Source of the DNA: Syntrophales bacterium
GTDB lineage: Bacteria > Desulfobacterota > Syntrophia > Syntrophales > UBA5619
Assembly (NCBI GenBank): GCA_023229765.1
Contig: JALNYO010000010.1
Location: forward strand, 40,003-104,002
Direction: 5' to 3'
Length of the DNA stretch: 64,000 nucleotides
Shown here: positions 13,701 to 60,353 of the stretch, in pieces
How the letters are laid out: the number at the start of each line of letters is the position of its first letter
How positions within the stretch are numbered: position 1 is the stretch's first letter
Made by a program: the position numbers and the translations under genes
The notes under the pieces: generated by a model
Told to the model about the DNA's origin: nothing
What the model saw: the letters and a program-made list of their open reading frames with translations, nothing else
The model's database searches: none

Positions 13701-13808
13701 GAGGGCAGCCTGAATGCCGCTGATCCCTGCGCCGACGACCATCACATCGCCCCAATTGCTTTCTGTGAGACTTTTGCAAGGCTGTCCCGCCACTGCTTCT
13801 TTTCCCAT
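10707..13808 (-). CDS. bamE: BamE (double HdrA-like FAD/FeS protein with ferredoxin inserts)
   Basis: 1033 aa. Two FAD-binding Rossmann starts are present (VMVVGAGISGIQAALDLA and ALVVGGGIAGMTSALALA), along with several CxxCxxCxxxCP ferredoxin motifs. Size and position match bamE. Confidence 0.8.
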   Translation of the reverse strand: MGKEAVAGQPCKSLTESNWGDVMVVGAGISGIQAALDLADMGFKVYLVEKSTTIGGKMSQFDKTFPTNDCSMCIESPKFIECDRHPNIEILTYTEVDKVKGVAGDFKATLIKKPRYVDVDKCTGCTACSEYCPVKVPDPYNQKLSLSKAIHIHFSQAVPLISYIDPEACLYLNDEKCSICLGICKNGAIDFTQKPEELEISVGAIVLAPGYEIFDPKPRGDYGYGQMQNVITSLDFERLLSSTGPFAGEVLRPSDRKYPHKLAWIQCVGSRQVVPGGHSYCSAVCCTYTQKQVILTKDHDPAVECTVFHNDIRAYGKDFERFYQRAEGLPGVRFIRSYVSIGKEIPDSKNVTIRYSTLEDGVKEEEFDLVVLSVGLTPPAGAVEFANKFGIELNAQGFCKTNPVNPMETTRPGIFVSGAFQGPMDIPESVMGASGAASLCGQILAFQRGDLARARMYPVEKDVSDEEARVGVFVCRCGTNIGRVVDVPSVAEYASTLKNVVHAQESLFACSTDNARQISDTIREKGLNRVVVAACTPRTHEPLFRDTVREGGINPYFFEFANIREHCAWVHSREQESATKKAKDLIRMSVSRASLLQPLQEFELPVDKRALVVGGGIAGMTSALALANQGFEVYLLEKDKELGGVARRLAYTLEGLDVQEYLRDTIRKVYQHPLIHVSKGAAIMEVSGFVGNFTTRVKSGGSVKELHHGVSIIAIGAEEYKPAEYLYGKDDRVLTLLELEEKIVKKEERLMNAQSLVMIQCVGCRQADRNYCSRVCCSQAVKNALKLKEINPQMDVYILFRDMRTYGFSEDYYREAANQEIKFVRYEANDKPVVEAAEEEGRKILRVTVTDPVLGKKLALDADLLALAAAVIPAATSEEISQFFKVPLNQDGFFQEAHVKLRPVDFSTSGVFLCGMAHYPKHISETISQAYGAASRAVTILARDTLIASGAVCEVNENECIACGACLSACTDGAIEFHETPQGSRVRVNSILCKGCGLCNSKCPVGAISLKHYTNKEILSQINVAFPAPVEVQ

Positions 13809-13841: not shown

Positions 13842-14993
13842 CTAAATCAGCTCCTGGATGATTTCCGTAATATCTTTAATCGCCAGCGCTTCGCTATCCT
13901 GCATGTTCAAGCGGCTGTCCTCGAAATTGGTGATGCAGTAAGGACAGGCCGTTACCAGCTCCTCGGCCCCTGCCTCCACCGCCTGCGCCAACCGCAGATC
14001 GGAGAACCGCTCGCTCTTGGGCGTCTCCATCCAGATCCGCCCTCCGCCCCCGCCGCAGCACAGACTGTCCTGCCGGTAATCGGCCATCTCCAAAAGCTCC
14101 AGTCCGTCTATCTTCTTCAAAACCTCCCGCGGCTCGTCGTATATCCCGTTGTGCCGTCCCAGGTAACAGGGATCATGCCAGGCAACCTTCTTTTCGTAAC
14201 CCTTCGCAAGCTTCAGCCGGCCTGAATTGATCAGCTCAAACAGGTACTGGGTGCTGTGAACCAGCTCAAAGTGCACCATGAATTCGGGATATTCGTTCTT
14301 GAAGGTGTGGTAGCAGTGAGGCGAGGAAACCAGAATCTTCTTCACCCCGTTTTCGATAAAAGTCTTGATGTTGGCCCGGGCCAGACGTTTGAATAACTCC
14401 TCATCCCCCGCCTTGCGGATGCTCTCCCCGCAGCAGCCTGCCTGCGCACCCAGAATCCCGAAATCAACCCCTGCCTTGTTGAGGATATTAACCGTCGCGA
14501 CCGCAACCTTTTTCATCCGGGGGTCATAGCTGGGATAGCAGCCGGGAAAATAAAGCAGCTCCATCCCCTCGGCAAACGTCTTTACAGACAGACCTTTTGC
14601 CCAGTCCCCCCGCTTCTCCCGCTTTTCATTCAACGGATTGCCCTCGGCCATCAGGCTGGAGCTGATGCCGCGGAGCGGGCGGACGGAAGTGGGGAACACC
14701 CCGTATTCCGTGGCAACCCGGCGCAGGGAAACCCCCAGCTCGATGATCTTGACGCCGCGGGGACAACGCTGCGGGCAGCGGCCGCAGGTGGTGCAGCGCC
14801 ACATATCGTCGCTTTCGATCTCCGTCAAACCGAAGGTGGCCTGGCGGATGAGCTTGCGCATGCTGAACTTGATCACCCGGTTCCACGGACAGACAGAGTC
14901 GCACATCCCGCATTGATAGCAGAACTTGAAAACCTCTCCGCCGTTTTCCTTGATGACGTCTATTATCTCCCTGTAAGGAGCTACTGTCTCCAT
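13842..14993 (-). CDS. bamD: BamD (HdrD-like FeS protein with CCG domains)
   Basis: 383 aa with two 4Fe-4S motifs (CYQCGMCDSVCP, CTTCGRCPQRCP) and two CCG motifs (AGCCGES, SLCCGGGGG). Confidence 0.8.
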   Translation of the reverse strand: METVAPYREIIDVIKENGGEVFKFCYQCGMCDSVCPWNRVIKFSMRKLIRQATFGLTEIESDDMWRCTTCGRCPQRCPRGVKIIELGVSLRRVATEYGVFPTSVRPLRGISSSLMAEGNPLNEKREKRGDWAKGLSVKTFAEGMELLYFPGCYPSYDPRMKKVAVATVNILNKAGVDFGILGAQAGCCGESIRKAGDEELFKRLARANIKTFIENGVKKILVSSPHCYHTFKNEYPEFMVHFELVHSTQYLFELINSGRLKLAKGYEKKVAWHDPCYLGRHNGIYDEPREVLKKIDGLELLEMADYRQDSLCCGGGGGRIWMETPKSERFSDLRLAQAVEAGAEELVTACPYCITNFEDSRLNMQDSEALAIKDITEIIQELI

Positions 14994-25861: not shown

Positions 25862-26179
25862 TTGATAACATTTTCCGAAGCGGAATTGAGGGCTAAGGTT
25901 GTTAAGGCGATGGGCCATCCCGTGCGGATGATGGTCATCGGATTTATCCTGGATGGTGAACGCTCCTTTTCCGAAATATTCAAATTATTCAATTTGGATA
26001 AATCCACTATTTCCAAACATCTGCTTGTTCTGAAAGAATCAGGCATCATTTCTTCACGGAAAGTCGGCAGGGAAATGATCTATAGACTCGAAGAGACATG
26101 TGTGGCGAATTTCTTTTCATGTGCGACGGCCGTTGTTCAGAACAAGGTGGAGAAGCAATTGGAGGGGCTGAAGAGATAA
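25862..26179 (+). CDS. ArsR/SmtB-family transcriptional regulator
   Basis: 105 aa with wHTH GHPVRMMVIGFILDGERSFSEIFKLFNLDKSTISKHLLVLKESGII. It has no alpha-3 CxC metal site but does have a C-terminal CVANFFSC (C-X7-C) pair. TTG start after AGGAG. Confidence 0.8.
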   Translation: MITFSEAELRAKVVKAMGHPVRMMVIGFILDGERSFSEIFKLFNLDKSTISKHLLVLKESGIISSRKVGREMIYRLEETCVANFFSCATAVVQNKVEKQLEGLKR

Positions 26180-26331: not shown

Positions 26332-27774
26332 ATGTATAAAGACATGTTGAAAAATGGCAAAATGCGTTTGGTTTCATTGTTAGGTGCGATAGCAATAGTT
26401 TTTTTTGTTCTCTGGGGCTGCGGCGGTGGGACATCAAGTTATGATGCTGTCAATTACGACCCGGTGTTGACAAAAACCGCCAATGCGTTAGTCGATGCCA
26501 CAACATTGAAGGGCTGGATGGATCAGGGGCTTGTACAGGGAGTGTCTTCTCCATTCGTTGCAGGTGAAAAAGTCGTTATCCTTGATTACAAGGATGCAAC
26601 GGCCTATGCCAGTGGTCACATTCCGGGTGCCGTCAGGGTGGACGGCGGCGAACTGCTGCTTACCCGTCTCGAAGGCGTTGCGGAAATGGGGTCGCTTGTC
26701 ACTGACGGTCCGCATATGGATGCAATTATACAAAGGGCCGGCATCGATGCAAATACAACAATTGTTTTCACAAGCTCCAGTGTTTCCAACGCAACCAGAG
26801 CATATGCCACATTCCGCTATTGGGGATTCCCTAAGAGCCGGTTGAAAGTGCTCGATGGGGTCGATACCGTCTGGAAGGCTGCAAATCCAATGAGTCTGGC
26901 CACCCCGACTATAAAGCCCTCCAGTTATTGCGTTACGCCGAACGGCGTCAATCGCGTCCAGACGCAGCTTCGCGCTTCGCTGGGCGAAATGATGCATGCA
27001 GTTCAGAATTATGATGGGACGAAACACGCCATCATCGACGATCTGAGCAATCCGGCGAACGGCCTGGCAGTGCCGGTGACTTCGACTTCCACCTGGTCGG
27101 GGAATATTTACAAGGGGATTCCCGGATCGACATCGGGGTTACTTCCCTATGCAGTCAGCGCCACGACGGAATATGTGGTTTTTGAAGGACATATGAAAAA
27201 TGCCGTAAATTTGTACGCTACGAACATGTATGCTGGCAACGTATTCTTCCCCGCAGACGATGGCACTCCCGCCAGCCTCAAAAGCAAGTTCAACGCCGTC
27301 GGGATGGACGAGACAAAAACCGCTTATATCTACTGCCGCGCTGGCAACTTCGCGACGATTGAATTCTTTGCCCTGGATGGCATCTTGAACTGGAACGTCG
27401 TATGGTATGACGGTTCCTGGGGACAGTGGGCGCTCATGGCGGACAAGAAGGGCGGCAAACTAAAAGCGGGATCGATCTGGTCAACATACCCGCTCAGCGT
27501 TTCCGATCCCGTGCCGAACACTACCGATACGCTTCTGCCGAAATATGTAAGGGATGCGGTTGACGGAGTCACCTACAACACGGACAACACACCGGTCGGA
27601 AGTGCCGTAAAATATCCGATACAGCCTTTGCCCTATTACATTAATCTGGATGTCTTTACCTCGGTCACCGATCCGGCGGCAAACCAGATAGAAGCGACGG
27701 ACAAGGCTTACAAAAGCCCGCTTAGCTCACCCTCGGGCGGTTCTTCCGGCGGTTCCTCCGGCGGCGGCTGCTAA
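26332..27774 (+). CDS. extH: Tandem-rhodanese lipoprotein (ExtH-like) with Gly/Ser tail ending in Cys
   Basis: 480 aa. The lipobox is VLWGC. The first rhodanese domain is inactive and the second carries the catalytic loop YCRAGNFAT. The C-terminus reads SSPSGGSSGGSSGGGC-stop. The rhodanese-porin-small protein-pentaheme order matches my recollection of Geobacter ExtHIJK. Confidence 0.7.
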   Translation: MYKDMLKNGKMRLVSLLGAIAIVFFVLWGCGGGTSSYDAVNYDPVLTKTANALVDATTLKGWMDQGLVQGVSSPFVAGEKVVILDYKDATAYASGHIPGAVRVDGGELLLTRLEGVAEMGSLVTDGPHMDAIIQRAGIDANTTIVFTSSSVSNATRAYATFRYWGFPKSRLKVLDGVDTVWKAANPMSLATPTIKPSSYCVTPNGVNRVQTQLRASLGEMMHAVQNYDGTKHAIIDDLSNPANGLAVPVTSTSTWSGNIYKGIPGSTSGLLPYAVSATTEYVVFEGHMKNAVNLYATNMYAGNVFFPADDGTPASLKSKFNAVGMDETKTAYIYCRAGNFATIEFFALDGILNWNVVWYDGSWGQWALMADKKGGKLKAGSIWSTYPLSVSDPVPNTTDTLLPKYVRDAVDGVTYNTDNTPVGSAVKYPIQPLPYYINLDVFTSVTDPAANQIEATDKAYKSPLSSPSGGSSGGSSGGGC

Positions 27775-27844
27775 AAGGAAGGCTATGGATTGAGTCTGCT
27801 CGTGAAAAGAAAAAATTAAAACAACCTAATAAAAGGAGAACCCT

Positions 27845-29053
27845 ATGCCAAAAAACAGAATAACAGCAAAACTCGCAGCAGTTGTCCTTGGTGTGGCGCT
27901 GCTCGCCGGGACCGCCTATGCCGGTCCGCAAGTGAAGTTCGGGCCGAAAGATGAAGGTCTGCTGCAACTCGACTACAAGGGGCAATTGCAGATGACCATG
28001 CGCGACAATGGTTCCGGGACCAACAAGGAATCTGCCACCTATGATTTCAACTTTCGCCGCAACCGCCTGGCTCTCATGGGCAAATATGGCGAGCTGATAA
28101 GCATTTATGTGCAGACGGAGTACACCGAGCATCAGGATCTTGGCACGCTCACTGTAAGCGATACCGACAGCGGTTACGAGTTTCAGATGCTCGACGCGGT
28201 AGTGCGGTTCAACTTCGCTGATGCGTTCAAGGTGAACGCCGGCAAGTTCAAATACAACCTTTCGCGTGAAAACCTGGAAGCATGTGAAATGCCTCTTACC
28301 CTCGATCGGTCTCTCTTCATCCGCGCCCCCTATGTGACCACCCGTGACAAGGGTATCGCGATCTGGGGGAACCTGTTTGATGACATGTTCCAGTATCGGG
28401 CCGATGTCATGGAGGGGAGAAATGCCACTACCGCGGCCGCTCCCCAGCCGGAATCGAGTTTCCGGTATTCGGTGCGCGGCCATGTGACGCTTCTGGATCC
28501 GGAAAACGACTATGGCTATAAAGGGACCTATCTGGGGAATAAACAGGTTCTGACCATCGGCGCCGCCTATCAGTTTGAACCAGACGTCGCTTATGCGGAT
28601 ACCGTTGCCAAAACCGACGCGAAGGATTACAAGGCGTGGACGGCCGACATCTTTTTTGAATACCCCATAGAGAATTTTGGCACGGTTACCGCTTCCGCCG
28701 CCTATGAGGATATCGATCTCGGCAACGCATACAAGGGTTTTAATCCCGATCCAGATACGATTGGATTAAAGGGGGAGAAGAACGGTTTTTACGTAAAGGC
28801 CGGCTACATGCTGCCGAATACCCCGCTGCAGTTCTTTGCCAGATATGAAAAGTGGGCGTTTGCAAACCTGAATGGCATTGTCGACCAGGAGGTGGAATGG
28901 TACGGTGGAGGCTTCAATTACTACATCCGGGGCCAGAACCTGAAGATCACGCTTGAAGCGAGCAATACAAGTTTTGACAAGGGGACCGGGACCAGCGCCG
29001 ACAGTACCGAAAGTTTTATGACTTTCGTCGCGCAGCTTCAGGTTATCTTCTAA
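27845..29053 (+). CDS. extI: Outer-membrane beta-barrel porin (ExtI-like)
   Basis: 402 aa. The signal peptide ends in AGTAYA-GP. Alternating beta-strand periodicity is visible, and the C-terminal FVAQLQVIF has the terminal Phe typical of OMPs. Confidence 0.75.
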   Translation: MPKNRITAKLAAVVLGVALLAGTAYAGPQVKFGPKDEGLLQLDYKGQLQMTMRDNGSGTNKESATYDFNFRRNRLALMGKYGELISIYVQTEYTEHQDLGTLTVSDTDSGYEFQMLDAVVRFNFADAFKVNAGKFKYNLSRENLEACEMPLTLDRSLFIRAPYVTTRDKGIAIWGNLFDDMFQYRADVMEGRNATTAAAPQPESSFRYSVRGHVTLLDPENDYGYKGTYLGNKQVLTIGAAYQFEPDVAYADTVAKTDAKDYKAWTADIFFEYPIENFGTVTASAAYEDIDLGNAYKGFNPDPDTIGLKGEKNGFYVKAGYMLPNTPLQFFARYEKWAFANLNGIVDQEVEWYGGGFNYYIRGQNLKITLEASNTSFDKGTGTSADSTESFMTFVAQLQVIF

Positions 29054-29071
29054 GAAAAAAAGATCATATCC

Positions 29072-29114
29072 ATACGCCAGGCCGCATAATTTCGAATACG
29101 GCGGCTTGGCGTAT
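29072..29114 (+). other. Strong intercistronic stem-loop between porin and small-protein genes
   Basis: ATACGCCAGGCCGC pairs with GCGGCTTGGCGTAT (14 bp including one G-U) around a 15-nt loop. No U-tract follows. Confidence 0.5.
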
Positions 29115-29142
29115 CAAAACACTAAATGAAAAGGAGGATAAG

Positions 29143-29463
29143 ATGTCCGGAAGAATCAGGATCGGGATTATGGCGTTTTTGCTGGTTGTTTTAATGTCGG
29201 CATCGGCGATTGCGGCGGAGAAAATTAACTGCAAGGTTGCGAAGGTATCCGGGGACAAGGTTACCGTGGCAATCGAGGGAGCGGTTCCCCCGTGGGTGAA
29301 GAGCGGGGCTACGGTTATCGGCGGCGGCGGCGCCCCGAAGATTGTTTCAATGAAGGGCAATGAAGTTGTTCTGCGCTTCAGCAGAGCCAAGGCTGCCAAA
29401 ATCAAGGTTGACTCAACGATTTCCCTGGAAGAGTCGTCTGGGGATGAGCTTCAGGGCTGCTGA
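29143..29463 (+). CDS. extJ: Small secreted protein (ExtJ-like) ending in Cys
   Basis: 106 aa. The signal peptide reads MAFLLVVLMSASAIA-AEK and the mature protein is about 80 aa. The C-terminus is SSGDELQGC-stop. RBS AAAGGAGG lies upstream. Confidence 0.6.
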   Translation: MSGRIRIGIMAFLLVVLMSASAIAAEKINCKVAKVSGDKVTVAIEGAVPPWVKSGATVIGGGGAPKIVSMKGNEVVLRFSRAKAAKIKVDSTISLEESSGDELQGC

Positions 29464-29552
29464 TTCTAAAGAGGGGGGCGACCGCACTTTCGCGTGTAAG
29501 GAGCTTTCAACATGCGGTTGTCTTCCCTAAAACAGGTTAGAGAGAGGTGGGT

Positions 29553-30905
29553 ATGATAAAAATACCAATGAAAGGTCTGCTGTTGGCGGTTATAGGGATC
29601 ATCGCCTTCGCTTCTCTTTCGTTTGCGGAAAAGGCCGGGATCGGTTGGAAAGAAACCATCGTCGCCAAATCCGGAAAGGCAAAGAGCGTTGCAGAGCTGG
29701 CAAAGATGTATGATTCGAGCTCGTGCGTTGAATGTCACAAGGAGCAGCATGACGAGGCTCAGAAGTCTATTCATTCGCGCTCGATTTTCGGCACGGCGCG
29801 TACAGCGATGACGATCATGAGCTCTATTGAAAATGGCTGGATGGAACAGCCTTATTCGGGGGTGAAGAGTCCGAAAGATGTGAAGGTGGAGCATCTGATG
29901 GGATGTGCGAAGTGCCATCTGCCGCAGCTTGCGGACGCCGAGGACTCGGTTGCCCAGGAGATTGTTACGTCTCTTTACCGCTGGAAAGACGCTCTGAAGA
30001 GGAAGGACAAGGAGACGGCGCAGAAGGAAGAAGCCAAACTGAAGAGCGTTTCCATTAACTGTCTTGTCTGCCATAACCGTAACGCCATCACCCATAAATG
30101 GCAGGATGGCTATCCGAAGGCGGGCGTTGTTTACGGCTCGAAGGATGGGGATCATCCCTCGGATGCTTTTCCGAAGATGGCAGTCAGTCCCATTATGAAA
30201 GAGGCGATTCAGTGCGGCCAGTGCCACGGGCTCGGCCCGAATTTCGAGCTGGACGAACCGACCCAGTGCTGCACTTCTTACGGCAGCTATCTTTGGTCGT
30301 ACAAATCCGAGGTGGGACAAGAGTCCTGTCAGGGTTGCCACATGGAAAAGAGCAAGCTCGGTCATAATATCCAGGGATATAGGGACCCGGCGATGATTAA
30401 GGATGCGGTCGACTTCAAGGTCGAGGCATTCGGATACTACTGGCGCGACATAACCGACCTTGTTCCGAAGGTTGTGGTGAAGGTGGAGATGATCAACCGG
30501 TCGGGACACTCCATCCCCGATGGGTGACCGACCCCCAACCGACTGGTTCTGTCGGTAATTGCAACAACGAAGGATGGCGAAGAGGTTTTCAATCAGGAAA
30601 AGGTTTACATGCCGGTGCCGCAGCAATTGGCCCGGGGGGACCGGATGGGACGAGGCCCTTATGAAAAGAGCGGGATAATCGAGGATACTGGTCTCCCTCC
30701 CGGCAAGGCTGTTCATGAGCGTTTCGATATTCTTTATCCGTTCGGCGATGTAAAGGAGAACGGGAAGACGGTCAATAAACAGCTGGCGCACGATCTGAAT
30801 GTCGAAGTGAAGCTCTGGTACCTTCCGTTCGGGTCGATGAATTCGAATGCGTTTCTCTGGCGTGAATTCAAAAAGACCGTCAGCGTCAGCACGAAAGGGA
30901 AATAG
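29553..30905 (+). CDS. extK: Periplasmic pentaheme c-type cytochrome (ExtK-like), probable selenoprotein with UGA at 30525-30527 read as Sec
   Basis: Signal peptide plus five CxxCH motifs (CVECH, CAKCH, CLVCH, CGQCH, CQGCH). Track ORFs 29547-30527 and 30609-30905 share one frame. The 81 nt between them contain no stop. The UGA falls inside a contiguous beta-rich domain (VKVEMINRSGHSIPDG-U-PTPNRLVLSVIATTKDGEEV). A SECIS-like hairpin follows (see feature 30525-30556). Confidence 0.65.
30525..30556 (+). other. In-frame UGA plus SECIS-like hairpin
   Basis: The UGA is at 30525-30527. The stem ACCGAC (30538-30543) pairs with GTCGGT (30551-30556) around the 7-nt loop UGGUUCU, which contains GGUU. 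The first loop G is 20 nt from the U of UGA. Confidence 0.55.
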
Positions 30906-30959
30906 CAGACACGGGGACAGTTAAGTCCGGTGTCGGACAACAGCAAGCAGTTGAAAGCG

Positions 30960-30992
30960 ACCGACGGGGGGAAATCCCGTCGGTTCTTTTTT
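30960..30992 (+). terminator. Rho-independent terminator ending the extHIJK-like operon
   Basis: ACCGACGGG-GGGAAAT-CCCGTCGGT (9-bp GC-rich stem) is followed by TCTTTTTT, 55 nt after the stop at 30905. Confidence 0.75.
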
Positions 30993-31092
30993 GAGAATTC
31001 GTGCAAACAGCTTGACTGAGCGATGAGTTGATTATAGAAGCATTCCGTAAAGACGATCAGCGCAACTGCTGACATAACCGTGATCGACGCCA

Positions 31093-32931
31093 ATGGTTTA
31101 TAACCGGCTTTTTCCGTCATTTTTGATTCTGCTGTCTCTTCTCGGCTGTAACCAGCCGGATATGCGGACATCGACCTGCGAATCCTGCCACAGGGGCATC
31201 GAGATACTCTCTCCTGCTCACCATTCCTGTGTTTCCTGCCATCGCGGAGACGACCGGACGCTCGATGCCAAAAAAAGTCATCAGAACATGCTGGGACCGA
31301 AGAATCCATCCGCTCCCGATACCTGGGAAAAGGGCTGCGGAGAGTGTCACTACCACCAGCTAAGCCGCATGCGTTCCAATCTGATGTACACGACGACTGG
31401 CATGATCAAGAATATCCAGTTGACCTGGGAAGGTGAAAACGGGCGTCTTTACGCGGGCAAGGCCGACCGGGTGTTCGACGCCCGGGGGCATGAGCTGCTG
31501 CTCAACGGTGTCGCCGATCTCGATCATCTCTCCGGCGAATTGTACCGCAAGTTCTGTTCCCAGTGCCATGTGGGGATCGATACCACCAACGTTTACACGG
31601 CGAGCCACGCGGCTGGCTGCGCGGCCTGCCATTTCCCATACAACGACCGGGCGACTTACGAAGGGAAGGAGCCGTCGCTCAAAGGTAAATCACCCTATTC
31701 CGCAAGCCACCAGATGGAAAAACTTCCAGACAACAAGGTTTGCGTTCGCTGTCACAACCGCAGCGGCCGGATCGCCCTTTACTACGAGGGATTCAATGAT
31801 GGCAGCAACTCTCTCGTGCCGACCAGAAACGGATCTCCCGGACCGGTCATGTTGAGCGGCAACCGCAATGCCACCCACATCGCCCCGGACGTTCATTTTG
31901 TCGCGGGCATGGACTGCATAGACTGTCATACTTCGCGGGACGTCATGGGGGACGGTTACGCGTATGAAAACATGTATCTCCAGACGGAGATCAGTTGCGA
32001 GGATTGCCATGGCGGGGGAGATTCCCGGCCCCGGTACCGCGAAATAACGAGGGAAAGCGATGAGGCGCTGCGCGAGTCTCAGCAGTACAAGATCAAGATG
32101 CGTCCGGGGATGAAGATGATGCTTACCGCCAAAGGGCGGATGTATTCCAATGTTTTTTACCAGGATGGGATTGTCTATGTTCTCGGCAAAAGGAGCGGGA
32201 AACTGTTCAAAAGCAAGGTTATTTCCGGAACTCCGGAGCATGCCGTCTTCGGGCATGACCGTCTGGAATGCTATGCCTGCCATTCGCGCACGGTGGCCCA
32301 GTGTTATGGATGCCACACCAACTATGACAAAACAAAGCCGGGGATAGATTATATCAAGCAAATGGTCACCCCCGGCCGCTTCAGCGAGACCGAGGATTAC
32401 CGGGCGCTCTATCCGTTTCCACTGGCGCTGAATCAGCGGGGCAAGATTTCCCCTGTCACGCCCGGTTGTCAGACTTTTGTCACCGTCATCGAGGCGGATG
32501 GAACTGTTTCCAAAAACGAATACGTGGCAAAGTTCAAAGGAAAGAGTCAGTTGCGTTTTGCCCCGTTTTATTCGCATAATACCGGAACGAAGGCGATCGG
32601 GTGCAATGAATGCCACGCCAATCCATCATTTCTCGGTTTCGGCCAGCATGTGGTCGAGGGAAACAGCATAAACGCCACGATGATCTGCGAAAAATCGGAG
32701 AGCAAGCCGCTGGACGGCTATATCACCATGGAACAGGGAAAGGTGCGGTCCTTCTCCGCCATCACCCGTGAAAATTCCCGCCCTTTGAACGGAAAAGAGG
32801 TGCGGCGCACGCTCGCCGCCAATCTCTGCATCGTTTGTCATGACAAGGCAAAAGACCCGATTTACCGAAAGGAACTTGATTATAATGCGCTTGATGATAA
32901 GCTGCATCGCCGCCTGCTTGCTGTTCATTAA
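31093..32931 (+). CDS. Dodecaheme c-type cytochrome lipoprotein
   Basis: 612 aa. The lipobox is LSLLGC. I counted 12 CxxCH motifs: CESCH, CVSCH, CGECH, CSQCH, CAACH, CVRCH, CIDCH, CEDCH, CYACH, CYGCH, CNECH, CIVCH. Confidence 0.85.
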   Translation: MVYNRLFPSFLILLSLLGCNQPDMRTSTCESCHRGIEILSPAHHSCVSCHRGDDRTLDAKKSHQNMLGPKNPSAPDTWEKGCGECHYHQLSRMRSNLMYTTTGMIKNIQLTWEGENGRLYAGKADRVFDARGHELLLNGVADLDHLSGELYRKFCSQCHVGIDTTNVYTASHAAGCAACHFPYNDRATYEGKEPSLKGKSPYSASHQMEKLPDNKVCVRCHNRSGRIALYYEGFNDGSNSLVPTRNGSPGPVMLSGNRNATHIAPDVHFVAGMDCIDCHTSRDVMGDGYAYENMYLQTEISCEDCHGGGDSRPRYREITRESDEALRESQQYKIKMRPGMKMMLTAKGRMYSNVFYQDGIVYVLGKRSGKLFKSKVISGTPEHAVFGHDRLECYACHSRTVAQCYGCHTNYDKTKPGIDYIKQMVTPGRFSETEDYRALYPFPLALNQRGKISPVTPGCQTFVTVIEADGTVSKNEYVAKFKGKSQLRFAPFYSHNTGTKAIGCNECHANPSFLGFGQHVVEGNSINATMICEKSESKPLDGYITMEQGKVRSFSAITRENSRPLNGKEVRRTLAANLCIVCHDKAKDPIYRKELDYNALDDKLHRRLLAVH

Positions 32932-34135
32932 CCCGGCGGGCGGCGCTGCCGGTAAAAACTGCACATCCTGTCATCAGGTTGTATTGAAAGGCATCCATGC
33001 GGCGCTTTCGTGCGCATCCTGCCACCGCGAAAAGCCGGACGTCATCGCCGATCCGGCATCCGGAAAGCATCATGCCGCCGGCTGCGTCGGCTGCCATCAG
33101 GGTTACGGCGCCCTGTTCGATCATGCCATGGCGACCAGAAGCAGGGAGAAGCTCTTTGTTCAGCGAACTATCGGCAACAGCGACTCCGGTTTTTTCGGAA
33201 AAAACTGCGGCTCCTGCCACCTGAAGAGTTGCACCGACTGCCACGGGGGGAAGGGGCACAACATCGTCAAGGCAGCGGACAAAAGCTGCATGGCCTGTCA
33301 CAAGGGGTATTACGTCGGGATGGAGTACTACGGGATGGCGCCCCGGGAAGACAGCAGCCGTTACCAGAGAGGCAAGGCAGCTTTTGGCGAAAAATCCCTG
33401 AAAATGCTCCCGGACGTTCACGCGGAGGCGGGCATGACCTGCGGGGCCTGTCACTCCATGAAAAGCCTCGTTACGGGGGCGAAGTCTTCCCGGAAATGCG
33501 TCGATTGCCATCAGGCGCAGAAAACCGTCGTCGAGCACCGCATAAAGGCTCACATGGAAAAGCTGGAATGTTATGCCTGCCATTCCGCCTGGGCGGCGCA
33601 GGAGTACGGAACCTTCTATCTCCGTTTTATAAACAGCCCAGTGCAGAGGGAGTTTGAGGCAGTCAAAAACAGAGGGGAATATGTGAAAAGTTCCTATCTC
33701 AAGAAACAGGATGCCCCGCCTTTGGGGGTCAATGCCGCAGGCAGAGTCAGTCCAATCCGGCCCGAGTTTATTTTCTACGGAACGACCGTCAAAAACAACC
33801 GGCCGGAAGGAAAGGAAAGCCGGCTGCTTGCCGCCGAATGGAAGGCCTTTTTCCCGCATACGATAAGGCGGGGGACTCTCATGTGCGATGGCTGCCATGA
33901 AAATTCCCGGCGTTTTATTATGGAAAAAAAAGAGGACAGGATTTATAACCTTCCTGCCGACGGGATGACGCTCCCCTCTTTCTGGGAGCGAACTGGCCAG
34001 AAGGTTGTCAATGGAGATTTTCTGCCCCGTGAACGCTATCTGCGGATGTCGAAAAAAACGCCGGCTTATTGGAGAGGATACCTGGAAAAATGGCAAAAAC
34101 TGGTCAATCGCGTCGACGGTTCCTCGTCGCATTAG
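32885..34135 (+). CDS. Decaheme c-type cytochrome
   Basis: I counted 10 CxxCH motifs: CTSCH, CASCH, CVGCH, CGSCH, CTDCH, CMACH, CGACH, CVDCH, CYACH, CDGCH. I prefer the start at ATG 32885 (MRLMISCIAACLLF..., a short signal or possible lipobox IAAC), which overlaps the upstream gene end. Confidence 0.8.
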   Translation: MRLMISCIAACLLFINPAGGAAGKNCTSCHQVVLKGIHAALSCASCHREKPDVIADPASGKHHAAGCVGCHQGYGALFDHAMATRSREKLFVQRTIGNSDSGFFGKNCGSCHLKSCTDCHGGKGHNIVKAADKSCMACHKGYYVGMEYYGMAPREDSSRYQRGKAAFGEKSLKMLPDVHAEAGMTCGACHSMKSLVTGAKSSRKCVDCHQAQKTVVEHRIKAHMEKLECYACHSAWAAQEYGTFYLRFINSPVQREFEAVKNRGEYVKSSYLKKQDAPPLGVNAAGRVSPIRPEFIFYGTTVKNNRPEGKESRLLAAEWKAFFPHTIRRGTLMCDGCHENSRRFIMEKKEDRIYNLPADGMTLPSFWERTGQKVVNGDFLPRERYLRMSKKTPAYWRGYLEKWQKLVNRVDGSSSH

Positions 34136-34482
34136 CGTTTCTGGCAACAGGGCTTCTCTCGCTGACGAGGTTTTTGAAACCGGCCGCCAAGAGCAAAAAG
34201 ACGTTGCTCGCCGTGGCCGAGAAAGACATTCCGAGTAACGGCGCCCTCGTGTATAAGGAGGCGCGAGTCGCCATCATCAGGGAGTCGGGTAAAATATCTG
34301 CCGTCAGTCTGGTTTGCACCCATCTGGGCTGCACCGTTTCCGCGACGACCGATGAGCTTGTCTGTCCGTGCCACGGAAGCAGTTTTGACTGGAAGGGAAT
34401 CGTCATCAAGGGACCGGCGGACCGGCCTTTGCCGCAGTACAAGGTGGAAGAACGCGACGGACGGATTGTGGTACTGCTGTAA
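34090..34482 (+). CDS. Rieske 2Fe-2S protein with Tat signal and membrane anchor
   Basis: The twin-arginine motif SRRRFLVALAFLATG is present. Rieske boxes are CTHLGC and CPCHGS (bc1/b6f type). I prefer ATG 34090 over the TTG at 34069. Confidence 0.85.
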   Translation: MAKTGQSRRRFLVALAFLATGLLSLTRFLKPAAKSKKTLLAVAEKDIPSNGALVYKEARVAIIRESGKISAVSLVCTHLGCTVSATTDELVCPCHGSSFDWKGIVIKGPADRPLPQYKVEERDGRIVVLL

Positions 34483-34515
34483 TTATGGATTGACAGAGAC
34501 AAGAAGCGGAAACAT

Positions 34516-35178
34516 TTGCCAATTTTGACGGCAATCCCTCAGCGAGGAGAAGATTTTTTGTTCAAGGATTTTTTTAAACACATATTTCCCCGGATTGTAC
34601 TGCTGGGCAATCTGCGGATAACCTATACCTTCTGCCTGGGCGGGCTGGCCTTTACCACGTTTTTACTGCTTATCGCCTCCGGGCTGCTGCTCCTTTTTTA
34701 TTACCAGCCTGCGCCGGAACGGGCGTTTCAATCCATCCTGTTTCTGGAAGAATCGGTCTGGGGGGGGCGGTATCTGCGGAGCCTGCACCGGCTTTCTTCC
34801 CACTTTTTTCTCGTCCTCATTTTTCTCCACACCCTGCGGGTCATACTTACCGGGGCCTACCGCAAGCCGCGTGAGTTCAACTGGGCGATCGGGTTTTCAC
34901 TCCTCTGCATTACGATTTTCGATGCGTACACCGGCTATCTGCTGCCAATGGACCAGCTCAGCCTGTGGGCGACCCAGACGGGGATGGAGCTGGTCGGGAC
35001 AACGTTTCCGGGACCGCAGGTACGGGGGATCCTTGTGCCCGACGGAGTCGGCCAGCCGATGTCGCTGCTGCGTTTTTATATACTGCACATCGTGCTGCTG
35101 CCACTGTCGGTACTTTCTCTTTCCGTTCTCCATTTCTACCGCATCCGGAAAGACCGGGGACTTTTGCCGTATCTGTGA
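34516..35178 (+). CDS. Cytochrome b (b6-like N-terminal half, four-helix heme-b domain)
   Basis: The sequence carries RSLHRLSSHFFLVLIFLHTLRVILTGAY and RFYILHIVLLPLSVLSLSVLHFYRIRK, the conserved His pairs of helices B and D. The start is uncertain: TTG 34516, or TTG 34558 preceded by GAGGAG. Confidence 0.85.
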   Translation: MPILTAIPQRGEDFLFKDFFKHIFPRIVLLGNLRITYTFCLGGLAFTTFLLLIASGLLLLFYYQPAPERAFQSILFLEESVWGGRYLRSLHRLSSHFFLVLIFLHTLRVILTGAYRKPREFNWAIGFSLLCITIFDAYTGYLLPMDQLSLWATQTGMELVGTTFPGPQVRGILVPDGVGQPMSLLRFYILHIVLLPLSVLSLSVLHFYRIRKDRGLLPYL

Positions 35179-35211
35179 GTCTTTTTTCATCTTAGTCGCT
35201 GAGGTGCGATT

Positions 35212-35628
35212 GTGAAAGATTACATAAAGAGTTCGCCGCATTTTTTTCGCCTGATAAAACTGGCGGCAGCGCTTTTCTGCGGGGCGGTTTTCGTGCTGGC
35301 GTTCTTTATCACGGCGCCGCTTCAGGCGCCGGCAGACATCCGCCATGTTCCCAATCCGGTCAAGTCGGCATGGTTTCTGCTCTGGATTCAGGAACTTGTC
35401 AGCTATTCCCGCTATCTTTCGTATCTGGTCGCCGCGATCGGAGCTTTTTTTCTGCTCATCCCCTGGCTGCCGATCAGCCCCCCGGCCACCCGGGCCAGAT
35501 GGTTTGCCGGCGGCCAGTTCCCGGTGACAGTCATCACGGTTGTCACGTTTACGGCCATTTTAGCGTTGACGATTATAGCCATGTTCTTCAGGGGTGAAAA
35601 TTGGTCTTTTATCGCGCCTGTCTGGTAG
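35212..35628 (+). CDS. Cytochrome b C-terminal-half / subunit-IV-like membrane protein
   Basis: 138 aa with 3 predicted TM helices. PNPVKSAWFLLWIQELVSY occupies the position of the PEWYF-type motif of PetD/cytochrome b C-terminal domains. GTG start after GAGGTG. Confidence 0.6.
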   Translation: MKDYIKSSPHFFRLIKLAAALFCGAVFVLAFFITAPLQAPADIRHVPNPVKSAWFLLWIQELVSYSRYLSYLVAAIGAFFLLIPWLPISPPATRARWFAGGQFPVTVITVVTFTAILALTIIAMFFRGENWSFIAPVW

Positions 35629-36422
35629 CAATATTACTTGCGGTCTCTCTCGCGGATTACGCCTTTCCCGCCCGGCAGAGCGTCTGTATCACCTGCCACC
35701 AGCCTCACTATTCCGGCAAGGGGAGCTGTGTGAGCTGTCACAGGGGTGACGACCGTACCGGGCGTAAGGAAATCGCCCATTATGATCTTGTTGCCGGCAG
35801 ATTTGCCCACTATAAAATCGAGGGGAGTCCGGTGGCGGAGCGGGGGAAAAAACTTCTGGAGCGATTCTCCTGCCGGCGCTGTCATCGTTACGCGGAAAAG
35901 GGGAACCATCTGGCGGGGAGTCTCGATGTGACGGGAGCGACTGGAAAGGTCCGTGATATCTACGAGTCAATCAGGGTGCCGGTGCTCTTCATGCCGAACT
36001 TCCATGCGAACGACGCCCAGATTGCCGATCTGGTGAACGCCATCCTGGCGCGTGCAAAATTTCAAAAGCCGCCGGTGGGAGAAACCGCCCTTATAGTTCA
36101 TTTTCAGGACGTGAAAAATATCCGGAAGAACGTATTTGCCGGAAAATGCGGCAAGTGCCACAAAATCCTCAGCGAACAATCGGGCGGGCTGGGGAGCGGC
36201 TATATTGGTCCGAACCTGTCCGGGCTTTTTTCCGAATTTTATCCCAGGACGTATCGCGACGCGGAATCATGGAATCCCGACAAGCTCAAGAAATGGCTGG
36301 AAAATCCACGTGATATCAGGATAAACGCCATGATGCCGCCGGTGCGGCTTGCACCCGAGGAGTTTGAGCAGCTGCGGGGAATCATCCAGCTCGATAAATC
36401 CTTGCCCGATGCACCCAGGTAG
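35601..36422 (+). CDS. Tetraheme c-type cytochrome (last domain class-I-like with Met ligand region)
   Basis: 273 aa with a signal/anchor ACLVAILLAVSLA. Four CxxCH motifs are present (CITCH, CVSCH, CRRCH, CGKCH). The C-terminal GPNLSG...WLENP...MMPP is typical of class I cytochrome c. Confidence 0.8.
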   Translation: MVFYRACLVAILLAVSLADYAFPARQSVCITCHQPHYSGKGSCVSCHRGDDRTGRKEIAHYDLVAGRFAHYKIEGSPVAERGKKLLERFSCRRCHRYAEKGNHLAGSLDVTGATGKVRDIYESIRVPVLFMPNFHANDAQIADLVNAILARAKFQKPPVGETALIVHFQDVKNIRKNVFAGKCGKCHKILSEQSGGLGSGYIGPNLSGLFSEFYPRTYRDAESWNPDKLKKWLENPRDIRINAMMPPVRLAPEEFEQLRGIIQLDKSLPDAPR

Positions 36423-36665: not shown

Positions 36666-36938
36666 ATGAAAAATGTTAACGCGTTGAAGATAAGAAATCA
36701 GTTAGGCGCAATCTTGGAGGAACTCAGCGAAACCGGAGAGCCGGTTCTTATCAGCAAGGGACGAAAGGTTCGGGCCGTGTTGGTTACACCCGAACAGTTT
36801 GAAAGACGGTTTCTCGATTTTCAGACGGAAGAAAAAAAGCGGGAGCTTCTTGAGAAGATAGAATCCCTTCGGGCCGGGCGAATCGGGGGAAAAAGCAGCA
36901 CGGATGTGCTACGAGAGTTAAGAGGGTATGAAGTATGA
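36666..36938 (+). CDS. Type II antitoxin, Phd/YefM family
   Basis: 90 aa. The N-terminus VNALKIRNQLGAILEELSETGEPVLISKGRKVRAVLV is the Phd/YefM fold signature. It overlaps the downstream PIN gene by 4 nt (ATGA). Confidence 0.8.
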   Translation: MKNVNALKIRNQLGAILEELSETGEPVLISKGRKVRAVLVTPEQFERRFLDFQTEEKKRELLEKIESLRAGRIGGKSSTDVLRELRGYEV

Positions 36939-37363
36939 TCTGGATCGTTGATGCCTCCGTTACCGTGAAGTGGTTCCTTGCAGAAGAGCGCAATTCCCCT
37001 GCCGATGCCGTGTTGAAGCGCTGGATCGATCAGCCGGAATTTTTTGCGATTCCGGAGCTGTTCTGTTTTGAGGTGTTTTCCGTTCTCTGTCGCATTCATC
37101 CCCGCGGGCGTGAAGTTTTCGTCGAGGGCGTTCTGCCGCTGATTCAGGGTGGAGTTCTCCGGCAGCCAATGACCGAGCAACTGGCCAGCGATGCGGCAAA
37201 CTTAGTGGCGGACGGGCTCACCGGTTACGACGCGTGTTACGCGGCGCTTGCCCGCCAGTTGGGAGGCATGTGGCTCACCTTCGATGCGCGTGCTCATCGC
37301 CTGATCGCCTCCGAGGCCATTTCCCACAATCTGGCCGAAGGCCTGCCGGCGGGGTGGCTTTAA
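36935..37363 (+). CDS. vapC: PIN-domain toxin VapC
   Basis: 142 aa. The sequence MIWIVDASVTVKWFLAEE carries the first acidic PIN residue, and further conserved D/E positions are present (E in ELFCFEV, D in YDACY). Confidence 0.8.
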   Translation: MIWIVDASVTVKWFLAEERNSPADAVLKRWIDQPEFFAIPELFCFEVFSVLCRIHPRGREVFVEGVLPLIQGGVLRQPMTEQLASDAANLVADGLTGYDACYAALARQLGGMWLTFDARAHRLIASEAISHNLAEGLPAGWL

Positions 37364-46626: not shown

Positions 46627-48477
46627 TTATTCTCCTATCTTATTGAGTCTTATGGCATTTTCCGGGCAGACCTGAACGCAGAGCGTACAGCCGATGCAGC
46701 TTGCTTCATCAATTTCCACCTGCTCCCCTTCCAGATAGAACGCCGGGCAGGCCAGCGTATTGAGGCAAACCCGATGATTCTTGCACTTGCTGTGGTCAAC
46801 AAAGTATGACCGTTTTTCCTGTTTTTTGAAGGTCTTTTCATACATGGGGCATATTTCGCGGGAAATGATTACGGAAAGCCCCGGGAAGGCGATGGCCTCC
46901 TTGATTTGCTCCACCGTCTTTTTGAACTTGAACGGTTTGACGACGGTCACATGCTTGACCCCGATGCCGTTCACCAGGGCTTCGATCGAGACGCTCAGGT
47001 TGTTGAAGCCCATATTTTCCATGGCTGTGCCGGGATCAGGCTGAAAGCCGGTCATCGAGGTTGTCCCGTTGTCCATGATGACGACCGTCTGGTTGTGGCC
47101 GTTATGCAAGGCGTTTATCAGCCCCGGGATTCCCGAATGAAAGAAGGTGGAGTCGCCGATGAAGGAGACAACCTTTCTGCCCGTTGCCGTGCCTATGCCG
47201 GAGCCCATGCCGATGCTGGCCCCCATGCAGATGGACAAATCCGACATGCTTAAGGGGGGAAGCACCCCCAGCGTGTAACAGCCGATATCGTTTGTGTAAA
47301 TCGGTTCGTCTCCGCAGGCCTGACGCATGGCGGCATAGGTTGCCCGATGGGGACAGCCGGCGCACAGGTTGGGGGGGCGCTGAGGAATATTGGGGATGTC
47401 GATGTTTACCGCCTCCTTCGTCGGGCACGCTACCCCAAAGTAGGAAGCGATAACCTTGCGCACCATGCTGGGGCTGAATTCATAGGCCCGGGAAAAAAGC
47501 CCGTAGCCCTTCCCCTTGATCGGGATGACGCTGCCGATTTCCTGGGCTTTAACCTTCACCCCCTCTTCCAGATAGGGTTCCAGCTCTTCAACGACCAGAA
47601 TTTTCTCACATTTGGCGATAAAATCCTTGATCAGCCTGTCCGGCAGCGGATGGGAAAAACCGATGCGCAGGACGCTTACCCGGGATGTCAGCGCGAGATC
47701 CTGCAGGGCGTCGCTCACGTAATTGAAGCTTACGCCGCTGGTGATTATCCCCAACTTGCCCTCGCCGGAAACAAAATTGTACGGGGATTGGTCGGATTCC
47801 CCGGCGGCCTTTTCATAATTGGCAAGCAGGACCTTGTGCAATTTCGTCGAAACGCTCGGAATAAGGGTATTTCTCAAGGGTTCCTTCGGAAAAGAGCCTT
47901 TGGAATTTTTCCCGGCGATCGGTCCCAGCGAAATAACCCCGGTGGAATGGTTAATGCGCGTGGTGGTTCTCAGGATAACCGGTTCCTGCAGCATTTCGGA
48001 AAGGTCAAAGGCATAGCGGGCCATCTCTTTGGCTTCGGCAATGGAGGACGGCTCCAGAACCGGCAGGCCGGAGAACTTGCCGTACATGCGGTTATCCTGT
48101 TCGTTTTGGCTGGAAAACATGGAGGGGTCGTCCGCCGAGACAAGGACAAAGCCGCCCTTCACCCCCTCGTAGGCAAGCGACATCAGGAAATCAGCGGCAA
48201 CATTCACGCCGACATGCTTCATGCTGCACATCGCCCGTACCCCTGCAATGGCCGCCGCAGCGGCAACCTCCATGGCGACCATTTCGTTGATGGCGTATTC
48301 GAAATAAACGCCGCTTTCCTTTTGGATTTTGAAAAAGGTGTCCCCGATCTCCGAAGAGGGGGTTCCGGGGTAGCAGGTTGCAACCGCCACGCCCGCCTCG
48401 ATTGCGCCCCGGACAATGGCTTCATTGCCGAGCATCAGCATTTTTTTCTCTGGACTATCCAGCAATAACTCGTTCAT
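46627..48477 (-). CDS. iorA: Indolepyruvate:ferredoxin oxidoreductase alpha subunit-type (TPP, 2x4Fe-4S)
   Basis: 616 aa. The N-terminal LMLGNEAIVRGAIEAGV, the TPP motif GDSTFFHSG and the C-terminal CxxCxxCxxxCP pair (CIGCTLCVQVCP) are all present. Confidence 0.85.
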   Translation of the reverse strand: MNELLLDSPEKKMLMLGNEAIVRGAIEAGVAVATCYPGTPSSEIGDTFFKIQKESGVYFEYAINEMVAMEVAAAAAIAGVRAMCSMKHVGVNVAADFLMSLAYEGVKGGFVLVSADDPSMFSSQNEQDNRMYGKFSGLPVLEPSSIAEAKEMARYAFDLSEMLQEPVILRTTTRINHSTGVISLGPIAGKNSKGSFPKEPLRNTLIPSVSTKLHKVLLANYEKAAGESDQSPYNFVSGEGKLGIITSGVSFNYVSDALQDLALTSRVSVLRIGFSHPLPDRLIKDFIAKCEKILVVEELEPYLEEGVKVKAQEIGSVIPIKGKGYGLFSRAYEFSPSMVRKVIASYFGVACPTKEAVNIDIPNIPQRPPNLCAGCPHRATYAAMRQACGDEPIYTNDIGCYTLGVLPPLSMSDLSICMGASIGMGSGIGTATGRKVVSFIGDSTFFHSGIPGLINALHNGHNQTVVIMDNGTTSMTGFQPDPGTAMENMGFNNLSVSIEALVNGIGVKHVTVVKPFKFKKTVEQIKEAIAFPGLSVIISREICPMYEKTFKKQEKRSYFVDHSKCKNHRVCLNTLACPAFYLEGEQVEIDEASCIGCTLCVQVCPENAIRLNKIGE

Positions 48478-49303: not shown

Positions 49304-50164
49304 CTAATTAAAAAACGTTACTTCACCCCAATTGCGGGGTCTTTTCGGCAGTTCCCCGGCAGGCGTCGCCTGGAATTTATCCTTTCCCAGCAGCGCCGCG
49401 CCGATGGCCCCGGTTACCAGCGGCTCCGGGGGAACCAGAACCGCATATCCCAACCTTTCCGCGAGCACCTTCACCAGATGCCCGTTTTTGGCGCCGCCGC
49501 CGGTAACAACAACCTCTTTTTCCACAGCAAGCCGGCTGACTGTACGGAGAATGCGCTCGGCGACCGATTGGTGGATGCCGGCGACCAGATCGCCCAAGAG
49601 CGCTCCTTCGGATAAGCGGGACGCCACCTCCTGGGCGGCAAAAACGGTGCATAAGCTGCTTATCCGTGCCGGGTTTTTGCTTTCCTCGGCAGTTTTGCTC
49701 AGCGCGACCAGCTCTATCCCCAGCGTTCCGGCAATAACCTCCAGAAATCTGCCGGTGCCGGCCGCGCACTTGTCATTCATCACAAAATCGACTGGTTTGC
49801 CCTTGGCGTCTATCTTGATCCCCTTGACATCCTGCCCGCCGATATCGATTATCGTTCTTGCCTGCGGAAAGATACTGTTTACGCCCCGGGCGTGGCAGGA
49901 GATTTCCGTTATCTGCTTGTCCGCGAAAGGCACGTTGATTCTGCCATAGCCGGTAGCGACCAGATAGCTTATTTCCTCAAAGGAAAGGCCGGCCTTCTTC
50001 AAGGCTTCCTGCATTACTTTACCCGCCAGTTTCCTTTGTTCCGGGCCGGTTGGGCCGATCACGGAACATACTATTCCCCCATTAACTATTACTGCCTTGG
50101 TCATGGTAGAGCCGATATCAATGCCGGCGAAATATTTTGAAGATGAAGCCTTGCTTTCTGTCAC
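49304..50164 (-). CDS. Second BcrA/BcrD-family ATPase subunit (BzdP-like)
   Basis: 286 aa paralog of the previous gene (GIDIGSTMTKAVIV...DKCAAGTGRFLE...TGGGAKN). Having two distinct ATPase genes argues for a heterodimeric benzoyl-CoA-reductase-type module rather than a single dehydratase activator. Confidence 0.75.
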   Translation of the reverse strand: MTESKASSSKYFAGIDIGSTMTKAVIVNGGIVCSVIGPTGPEQRKLAGKVMQEALKKAGLSFEEISYLVATGYGRINVPFADKQITEISCHARGVNSIFPQARTIIDIGGQDVKGIKIDAKGKPVDFVMNDKCAAGTGRFLEVIAGTLGIELVALSKTAEESKNPARISSLCTVFAAQEVASRLSEGALLGDLVAGIHQSVAERILRTVSRLAVEKEVVVTGGGAKNGHLVKVLAERLGYAVLVPPEPLVTGAIGAALLGKDKFQATPAGELPKRPRNWGEVTFFN

Positions 50165-60144: not shown

Positions 60145-60353
60145 GCATAAAAAAATTGAAATTGACAATTTTTTTTAAATCGGTAATCTAACAGTCACAT
60201 GGAAAAAACTGAATAAGCGGCAAACGTCAGCACCAATGTATGCTTCCCTGTAACGATTATTTGCAGCCCAAATTAATGATGTCGGTCCCGGCGACAAAAG
60301 GTTTTGTTCGCATATTGGCAGATTGAACCCATTTAAAGGAGGTATTGATTGCG

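Follow-up and report, generated by a model that had tools for sequence, protein, structure and literature searches.

The 64-kb stretch of DNA analysed here (hereafter the window), which apparently comes from a Syntrophales metagenome-assembled genome (MAG), carries extKL (mccSep), a gene for a multiheme c-type cytochrome whose frame is interrupted by a TGA at 30525-30527. This triplet ends an open reading frame (ORF) at 29547-30527 and is in frame with a second ORF at 30609-30905. Read-through translation shows that the 27 codons lying between the TGA and the second ORF (30528-30608) are free of stops, and that the peptide around the TGA is KVEMINRSGHSIPDG-(TGA)-PTPNRLVLSVIATTKDGEEVF. The initial annotation of this DNA had placed both pieces in one frame with 27 stop-free codons between them, and had quoted the flanking peptide; both points are confirmed by translation through the TGA. 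It had also described the gene as split by annotation, and the public gene calls indeed divide the region into products of 324 and 98 amino acids (aa), annotated as two hypothetical proteins. Two start codons come into question, ATG 29553 and the alternative GTG 29547. Since AGAGG stands 6 nt 5' of ATG 29553 and the public 324-aa call begins there, ATG 29553 rather than GTG 29547 is the likely start of extKL (Table 1).

The fused protein, with a placeholder Cys at the TGA, matches NF040886, the curated NCBIfam equivalog model "multiheme c-type cytochrome (seleno)protein ExtKL", with 588 bits (cutoff 250, E 9e-177) over profile positions 6-422 of 423. When the halves are scored apart, the 324-aa piece covers positions 6-314 and the 98-aa piece 343-422 only. 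The name of this model agrees with the statement of the initial annotation that database names treat ExtK/ExtL-type cytochromes as (seleno)proteins. The structure match is to MccSep of Geobacter sulfurreducens (PDB 9wt8, 9wt9, 9wta, 9wtb and 9wtc; E 2e-235). The alignment to 9wt9 chain A is ungapped (query residues 12-450 against chain residues 13-450), the mature parts are identical at 325 of 425 positions (~76%), and the TGA, codon 325 counted from ATG 29553, aligns with chain position 325 in the motif SIPDG-(TGA)-PTPNR. Residues R83, H122, C239, C240 and K372 are all present in the window protein, numbered as in MccSep. Across the homologue alignment the five CxxCH motifs (CVECH 58, CAKCH 118, CLVCH 170, CGQCH 221 and CQGCH 259) are invariant, as are H122 and C239, and K372 is nearly so. 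The N-terminus of the window protein is MIKIPMKGLLLAVIGIIAFASLSFA followed by EKAGIGWKETIVAKS, with the predicted cut before EKAGIGW. The mature N-terminus of G. sulfurreducens MccSep, obtained by Edman sequencing, is EKAGIGWQETIVAKS, starting at residue 26 (PMC13510729). Window residues 26-40 equal it except for K in place of Q at the eighth position, and we infer from this likeness that the window protein is probably cleaved after residue 25. The C-terminal domain (30528-30905), annotated apart in part as the 98-aa 'ExtL' ORF (30609-30905), corresponds to the immunoglobulin-like beta-sandwich stem described for MccSep (PMC13510729).

The G. sulfurreducens orthologue has been studied in depth. 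An in-silico prediction that gsu2937-gsu2936 is one cytochrome-like selenoprotein was cited by Jahan et al. 2018, who named the protein ExtKL (PMC5877670), and a 2026 review counts NF040886 among the prokaryotic selenoprotein families (PMC13188914). Mihara et al. 2026 showed that an antibody against the downstream piece detects only a single 49-kDa periplasmic protein, MccSep, that each subunit contains 0.96 Se and 4.9 Fe, and that the selenocysteine (Sec) peptide found by electrospray ionization mass spectrometry is VEMTNHAGHSIPDGUPTPNR (PMC13510729). In the structures, at 1.75 A, the protein is a single chain with U325 beside heme 2, which is ligated by His122 and Cys239 (PMC13510729). MccSep is a polysulfide reductase with a weaker selenite reductase activity; the variants U325A, U325C and C239H lose activity, U325C being nearly inactive, and the delta-mccsep mutant has a defect in sulfur respiration (PMC13510729). 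The same authors retrieved 637 homologues, 394 of them by UGA read-through, and predicted SECIS-like hairpins (selenocysteine insertion sequences) for each clade (PMC13510729).

The site in the window, VEMINRSGHSIPDG-(TGA)-PTPNR, is the Sec325 site of MccSep. The window protein is further like MccSep in its length of 450 aa, its identical signal-peptide boundary, its five CxxCH motifs and its H122/C239 heme-2 ligation, in R83, K372 and a predicted Sec at residue 325 within SIPDG-U-PTPNR, and in its extHIJ-KL-MNOPQS neighbourhood. It differs in its host, which is apparently a Syntrophales MAG and not a Geobacter, and in its annotation as two hypothetical proteins. The authors of the MccSep study likened that enzyme to TsdA, SoxAX and mammalian thioredoxin reductase, on account of a Cys-ligated catalytic heme and of a Sec/Cys redox pair attacking chalcogen bonds; folds and sequences of these proteins are unrelated to MccSep, and the likeness is mechanistic only.

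We then consider how the TGA behaves among homologues. A scan of species-representative genomes gave 23 loci and a metagenome scan 80 more; 102 loci, on 22 genome contigs and 80 metagenome contigs and with 55-98% protein identity, cover the site. TGA stands at the Sec column in 102 of these 102, cultured strains of Geomonas, Geotalea, Citrifermentans and Geomobilimonas among them. More distant full-length homologues (~47-51% identity) have no in-frame stop and are single polypeptides with the same five-heme and beta domains. Some of them are of a Cys type with the motif PDGCPT and a TGC codon (for example P0094, P0099, P0104 and P0115), so that a classical Sec/Cys pair is present; others have Val, Ile, Thr, Leu, Gly or Ser at the Sec column, for example as PDS followed by V, I or T and then S (P0068 and P0079). 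The initial annotation had asked whether Cys or Sec(UGA) occupies this column; one or the other does so in all loci that cover the site with TGA and in the PDGCPT type, and neither does in some homologues of ~50% identity. In the three Cys-type loci that we fetched, a non-Cys copy (Thr, Val or Leu) lies upstream of the Cys (TGC) copy in tandem, whereas Sec-type clusters have a single MccSep copy. The tandem genes may form a heteromeric or subfunctionalised pair. The non-Cys homologues are paralogue-like and are no argument against Sec in the TGA lineage.

Downstream of the UGA, a spacer of 10 nt leads to a putative SECIS stem-loop with a 6-bp stem and the loop UGGUUCU, whose GGUU starts at a distance of 20 nt from the U of the UGA. 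Stem, loop and the distance of the GGUU are as the initial annotation had them; the spacer it gave as eleven nt is 10 nt, with the stem starting at the 11th. The published limits for a bacterial SECIS (bSECIS) are a loop of 3-9 nt, an upper stem of 4-16 bp, a spacing of 16-37 nt between UGA and loop and a minimum free energy of -7.5 kcal/mol or lower, together with a G as first or second base of the loop and a G or U next to it on the 3' side (PMC13188914). The window hairpin falls within all of them, with a loop of 7 nt, a stem of 6 bp, a spacing of 16 nt and -9.1 kcal/mol in context, and its loop U-G-G-U-U-C-U has G at position 2 and then another G, which upholds the earlier claim that it resembles bacterial SECIS geometry. 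All 60 distinct sequences have the UGGU unchanged, even at the wobble G of the Leu codon. In the SECIS of Escherichia coli fdhF, the upper stem-loop bound by SelB lies ~11 nt from the UGA and the GU of its loop is recognised. The geometry of the window hairpin is similar, and the stem-loop is placed as in the bacterial SECIS model of Zhang and Gladyshev, within the coding region and right after the UGA. Compared with the bSECIS consensus and with fdhF, the spacing is at the floor of the allowed range, the bulged U is missing, and the 5' arm ACCGAC is duplicated, which permits another and more stable fold, one that draws in the A of the UGA.

Conservation of this RNA was measured at synonymous positions, using 88 distinct sequences and codons with 4- to 6-fold degeneracy and a conserved amino acid. 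Codons +1 to +9 after the TGA had a mean entropy of 0.39 bits, against 1.40 bits for the flanking codons -22 to -1 and +10 to +45, without any overlap between the values of the two groups (Mann-Whitney p = 4e-5). The hairpin codons Leu CTG (86/86 and 88/88) and Ser TCG (82/82) are fixed, while Arg CGA (81/88) and Val GTT (76/88) prevail here and are in the minority elsewhere in these genes, at the further Arg and Val columns tabulated. So little synonymous change over nine codons points to selection on the RNA. In the 60 distinct sequences 94.7% of the stem cells are paired, and the only variants at stem sites that tolerate synonymous change, AAC to AAU (C-G to U-G) and CGA to CGG (A-U to G-U), keep the pairing. 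From the TGA to the end of the hairpin, the window sequence is identical to, or 1-2 bases off, most of the Geobacter-group loci fetched, a set that does not contain the G. sulfurreducens locus.

With high confidence, we read TGA 30525-30527 as the Sec325 codon of a single 450-residue periplasmic pentaheme cytochrome, an orthologue of ExtKL/MccSep. The initial annotation had called the UGA a probable selenocysteine, a reading now supported by NF040886, by Sec325 of MccSep, by the TGA in every covering locus and by the Cys-type homologues. Those of its refuting conditions that were put to the test all came out on the side of Sec. Sec incorporation, structure and enzyme activity would carry over from the MccSep literature by analogy, and decoding by SelB and a SECIS in this organism is likewise the expected route. 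According to the general bacterial mechanism, the hairpin 10 nt past the UGA would offer its UGGU loop to SelB-GTP-Sec-tRNA(Sec); SelB would insert Sec in competition with release factor 2, and translation would run on into the C-terminal beta-sandwich domain. The product would presumably be exported by its 25-residue signal peptide and then receive five c-type hemes. As in the homologous MccSep, Sec325 next to heme 2, with its ligands His122 and Cys239, would attack polysulfide as a nucleophile, and selenite less efficiently; the resulting Se-(S/Se)-S bridge to Cys239 would be reduced by electrons from the heme chain, with R83 and K372 assisting.

A series of observations, given in this paragraph and the next, weighs against this interpretation or against its RNA part. 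Of the 2021 UGA triplets in the window, 6.5% precede a bSECIS-compliant hairpin and 3.8% one at least as stable as ours. The fold energy of a 61-nt window around the site is unremarkable (z = +0.32), and that of a 42-nt fold (the UGA plus 39 nt) has z = -1.88, with 8 of 200 shuffles equal or better. Searches with Rfam, over the whole window at gathering thresholds and over 30450-30650 at E <=10, returned chance matches only. By its conservation the hairpin appears to be above chance, by its energy it is not. ARAGORN finds no tRNA genes in the 64-kb window, and an NCBIfam scan of 20 further large ORFs finds no selA, selB or selD among them; 64 kb being a small part of a genome, this negative result says little either way.

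The alignment fits more than one fold. There are two copies of ACCGAC, one at 30527-30532 (made up of the A of the UGA and the first five bases of the spacer, CCGACCCCCA) and one at 30538-30543, and either can pair with GUCGGU at 30551-30556. Two alternative pairings therefore compete with the simple hairpin (pairing 1: the 94.7% and -9.1 kcal/mol given above) and match the alignment about as well: an extended one, in which the upstream ACCGAC pairs with the 3' arm and AACC with GGUU (pairing 2: 94.8% paired, -11.5 kcal/mol, the minimum for free RNA), and GACCG/UGGUU (pairing 3: 99.3% paired, -1.9 kcal/mol). Compensatory double changes in the stem were found for none of the three pairings in the 60 distinct sequences, because the peptide PTPNRLVLSV is itself nearly invariant, so the alignment cannot choose among them. 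A minor Sec-type lineage, with Glu at +9 in L084, L087, L091, L097 and L100 and Tyr in L021, lacks the 6-bp stem; it has Arg AGG or CGG and Val GTC and keeps the UGGU, and its SECIS must pair otherwise, for example as CAGG/CCUG around CUGGU or as GACCA/UGGUC. Finally, a non-Cys copy in L106 (~875), with Leu CTG at the Sec column followed by HRLVLSV, has the hairpin CACCGGC/UGGUCCU/GUCGGUG (-15 kcal/mol for the 42 nt). To some extent, then, descent or the coded peptide may account for the hairpin: the L106 hairpin may be a relic of a Sec ancestor, or the peptide may partly drive it. Of the other two non-Cys copies fetched, one has no comparable hairpin and one folds differently; of the three Cys-type genes fetched, two lack a hairpin and the third folds differently.

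Among the three pairings, we favour the simple hairpin as the probable working SECIS, since it alone falls within the bSECIS limits and since the RNA left free by a ribosome sitting on the first ~10 nt past the UGA has it as its most stable fold. CCC at codon +1, found in five loci, breaks the extended pairing and spares the simple one. A more elaborate view, which we regard as rather unlikely, is that the duplicated ACCGAC makes a two-state SECIS driven by the ribosome. The free messenger would then be held in the -11.5 kcal/mol fold, with the UGA sequestered and the GGUU inside a helix; on its arrival, the ribosome would open the upstream ACCGAC arm, and the 3' arm would re-pair with the downstream ACCGAC, so that the UGGU loop would be open to SelB only during decoding. 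If true, this would explain the low synonymous variation at the spacer codons +1 to +3.

Other readings of the TGA have to be set against Sec. In the public annotation it is a true stop, and ExtK (324 aa) and ExtL (98 aa) are separate genes; gene callers do split the region so, and the second ORF opens with ATG 30609, a Met codon (+28) kept in 88 of the 88 distinct sequences. However, no stop occurs in the 27 codons between TGA and ATG, and codons +1 to +10 spell the nearly invariant PTPNRLVLSV, which would be unexpected for an intergenic spacer. Moreover, the two pieces fit consecutive parts of the one model NF040886, the full-length Cys-type homologues are single polypeptides, and G. sulfurreducens shows only the 49-kDa protein and a single-chain crystal structure (PMC13510729), all of which makes two genes extremely improbable. 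A further explanation would make this extKL copy a pseudogene, its TGA having arisen by nonsense mutation or through an error of sequencing or assembly. Such errors do occur in MAGs, the kind of source we have here; yet 102 genome and metagenome assemblies, independent of one another and with cultured strains among them, have the TGA at this very column, and the codons after it are under strong purifying selection. Because the TGA is conserved, this explanation is effectively excluded.

It is also conceivable that the UGA is read through without Sec, by a near-cognate Trp or Cys tRNA, or by leaky read-through after loss of the Sec machinery. The failure of the tRNA scan and of the scan of 20 further large ORFs to find Sec machinery in the window would fit, as would the fact that no other selenoprotein gene is evident in it: a scan for single-TGA junctions between long same-frame ORFs brought out no further split selenoprotein gene. 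Against this, the window is a small sample of the genome, and an RNA constraint right after the UGA is to be expected if decoding depends on SelB. Sec in the orthologue is stoichiometric and U325C is nearly inactive (PMC13510729), so a product without Sec would be largely non-functional, and where a lineage has given up Sec, the codon has become TGC. We therefore consider read-through without Sec very unlikely, and keep to Sec325 as the reading of the codon.

What does this locus add to what was known? The selenoprotein finding itself is already known and not new, because the family is curated as a (seleno)protein and an orthologue has been characterised biochemically, structurally and genetically. 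A multiheme chain in which Sec adjoins a Cys-ligated heme is of interest and is also published (PMC13510729). Our analysis adds a quantified RNA constraint on the nine codons after the UGA, over ~100 loci, and the observation that more than one SECIS pairing fits the alignment, the 5' arm being duplicated in a way that could allow a two-state element. It also bears on annotation: hundreds of public assemblies, like this MAG, carry the gene as a truncated 324-aa "hypothetical protein" or "cytochrome C" plus a 98-aa orphan, and its correct reading restores a complete catalytic enzyme. ExtKL marks an apparently Syntrophales-affiliated organism as a likely user of selenocysteine, one that would carry a full ext cluster for the periplasmic reduction of polysulfide (elemental sulfur) and selenite. 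In the scan of species-representative genomes, the closest extKL loci are in Syntrophus and other Syntrophales MAGs. The host appears to belong to the Thermodesulfobacteriota, the phylum in which the ExtKL/MccSep family is mainly found (PMC13510729).

Table 1. Coordinates of the features discussed, in the window unless another locus is named.
Feature	Position	Strand	Remark
Complete extKL / mccSep coding sequence	29553..30905	+	450 codons, TGA = codon 325, with the TGA read through as one polypeptide
Signal peptide (predicted), residues 1-25	29553..29627	+	mature N-terminus EKAGIGWKETIVAKS
Five-CxxCH heme-c region	29724..30341	+	motifs 29724-29738, 29904-29918, 30060-30074, 30213-30227, 30327-30341
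H122	29916-29918	+	heme-2 ligand, role from MccSep crystal structure (PMC13510729)
C239	30267-30269	+	heme-2 ligand, role from MccSep crystal structure (PMC13510729)
UGA codon 325, very probably catalytic Sec325	30525..30527	+	column of MccSep U325; TGA in 102/102 loci
Spacer from UGA to hairpin	30528..30537	+	10 nt, CCGACCCCCA
Putative SECIS stem-loop	30538..30556	+	ACCGAC 30538-30543, loop UGGUUCU 30544-30550, GUCGGU 30551-30556
C-terminal domain after Sec, with K372 (30666-30668)	30528..30905	+	aligns to MccSep structure
ext cluster around extKL	26332..36422	+	NCBIfam/Pfam matches
extH (rhodanese-like)	26332-27774	+	NCBIfam match above cutoff
extI (porin)	27845-29053	+	NCBIfam match above cutoff
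extJ	29143-29463	+	NCBIfam match above cutoff
extM	31093-32931	+	NCBIfam match above cutoff
extN	32885-34135	+	NCBIfam match above cutoff
Rieske protein at extO position	34090-34482	+	general Rieske models only
extP	34558-35178	+	221 bits, below cutoff of 290
extQ	35212-35628	+	NCBIfam match above cutoff
extS	35601-36422	+	NCBIfam match above cutoff
Tandem paralogues, L105	4628-5995 and 6001-7377		
Tandem paralogues, L107	6001-7368 and 7374-8726		
Tandem paralogues, L106	2-1240 and 1246-2694		

By their profile matches, the genes around extKL are assigned to a full extHIJ-KL-MNOPQS "selenite/tellurite reduction" cluster (Table 1). ExtN, taken for this comparison as 32840-34135 (+), scores nearly the same with NF040967 (ExtN, 654 bits) and NF040968 ("FeS_ExtO", 660 bits), and the Rieske protein at 34090-34482 fits neither; ExtN-like sequences seem to fall under NF040968, either its model or its description. 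Just 5' of extH, at 25862-26179 (+), lies a gene for an ArsR/SmtB-family regulator, with a sub-threshold likeness to the sulfite-sensing repressor BigR; this protein may control the ext cluster. Directly behind extS, and ahead of gatC/gatA, stands a PhdYeFM antitoxin / PIN toxin pair (~36666-37363, +).

Further away, four genes resemble parts of an electron-bifurcating module: an Fdh-alpha-like molybdopterin protein (4840-6888, +; below the Fdh cutoff), a NuoF-like flavoprotein (7681-9375, -), a 1033-aa HdrA-like fusion (10707-13808, -) and an HdrB/C-like protein (13842-14993, -). Their families often include selenoproteins, and none of these four genes has an in-frame TGA. The other end of the window holds genes of aromatic metabolism, coding for indolepyruvate ferredoxin oxidoreductase alpha (46627-48477, -), a benzoyl-CoA-reductase/dehydratase-like protein (50161-51540, -), two phosphoenolpyruvate-synthase-like proteins of the phenylphosphate-synthase kind (53461-55305 and 56699-57778, both +) and phenylphosphate carboxylase beta of the UbiD family (60345-61757, +). 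These genes fit an anaerobic phenol or benzoate degrader of the Syntrophales type.

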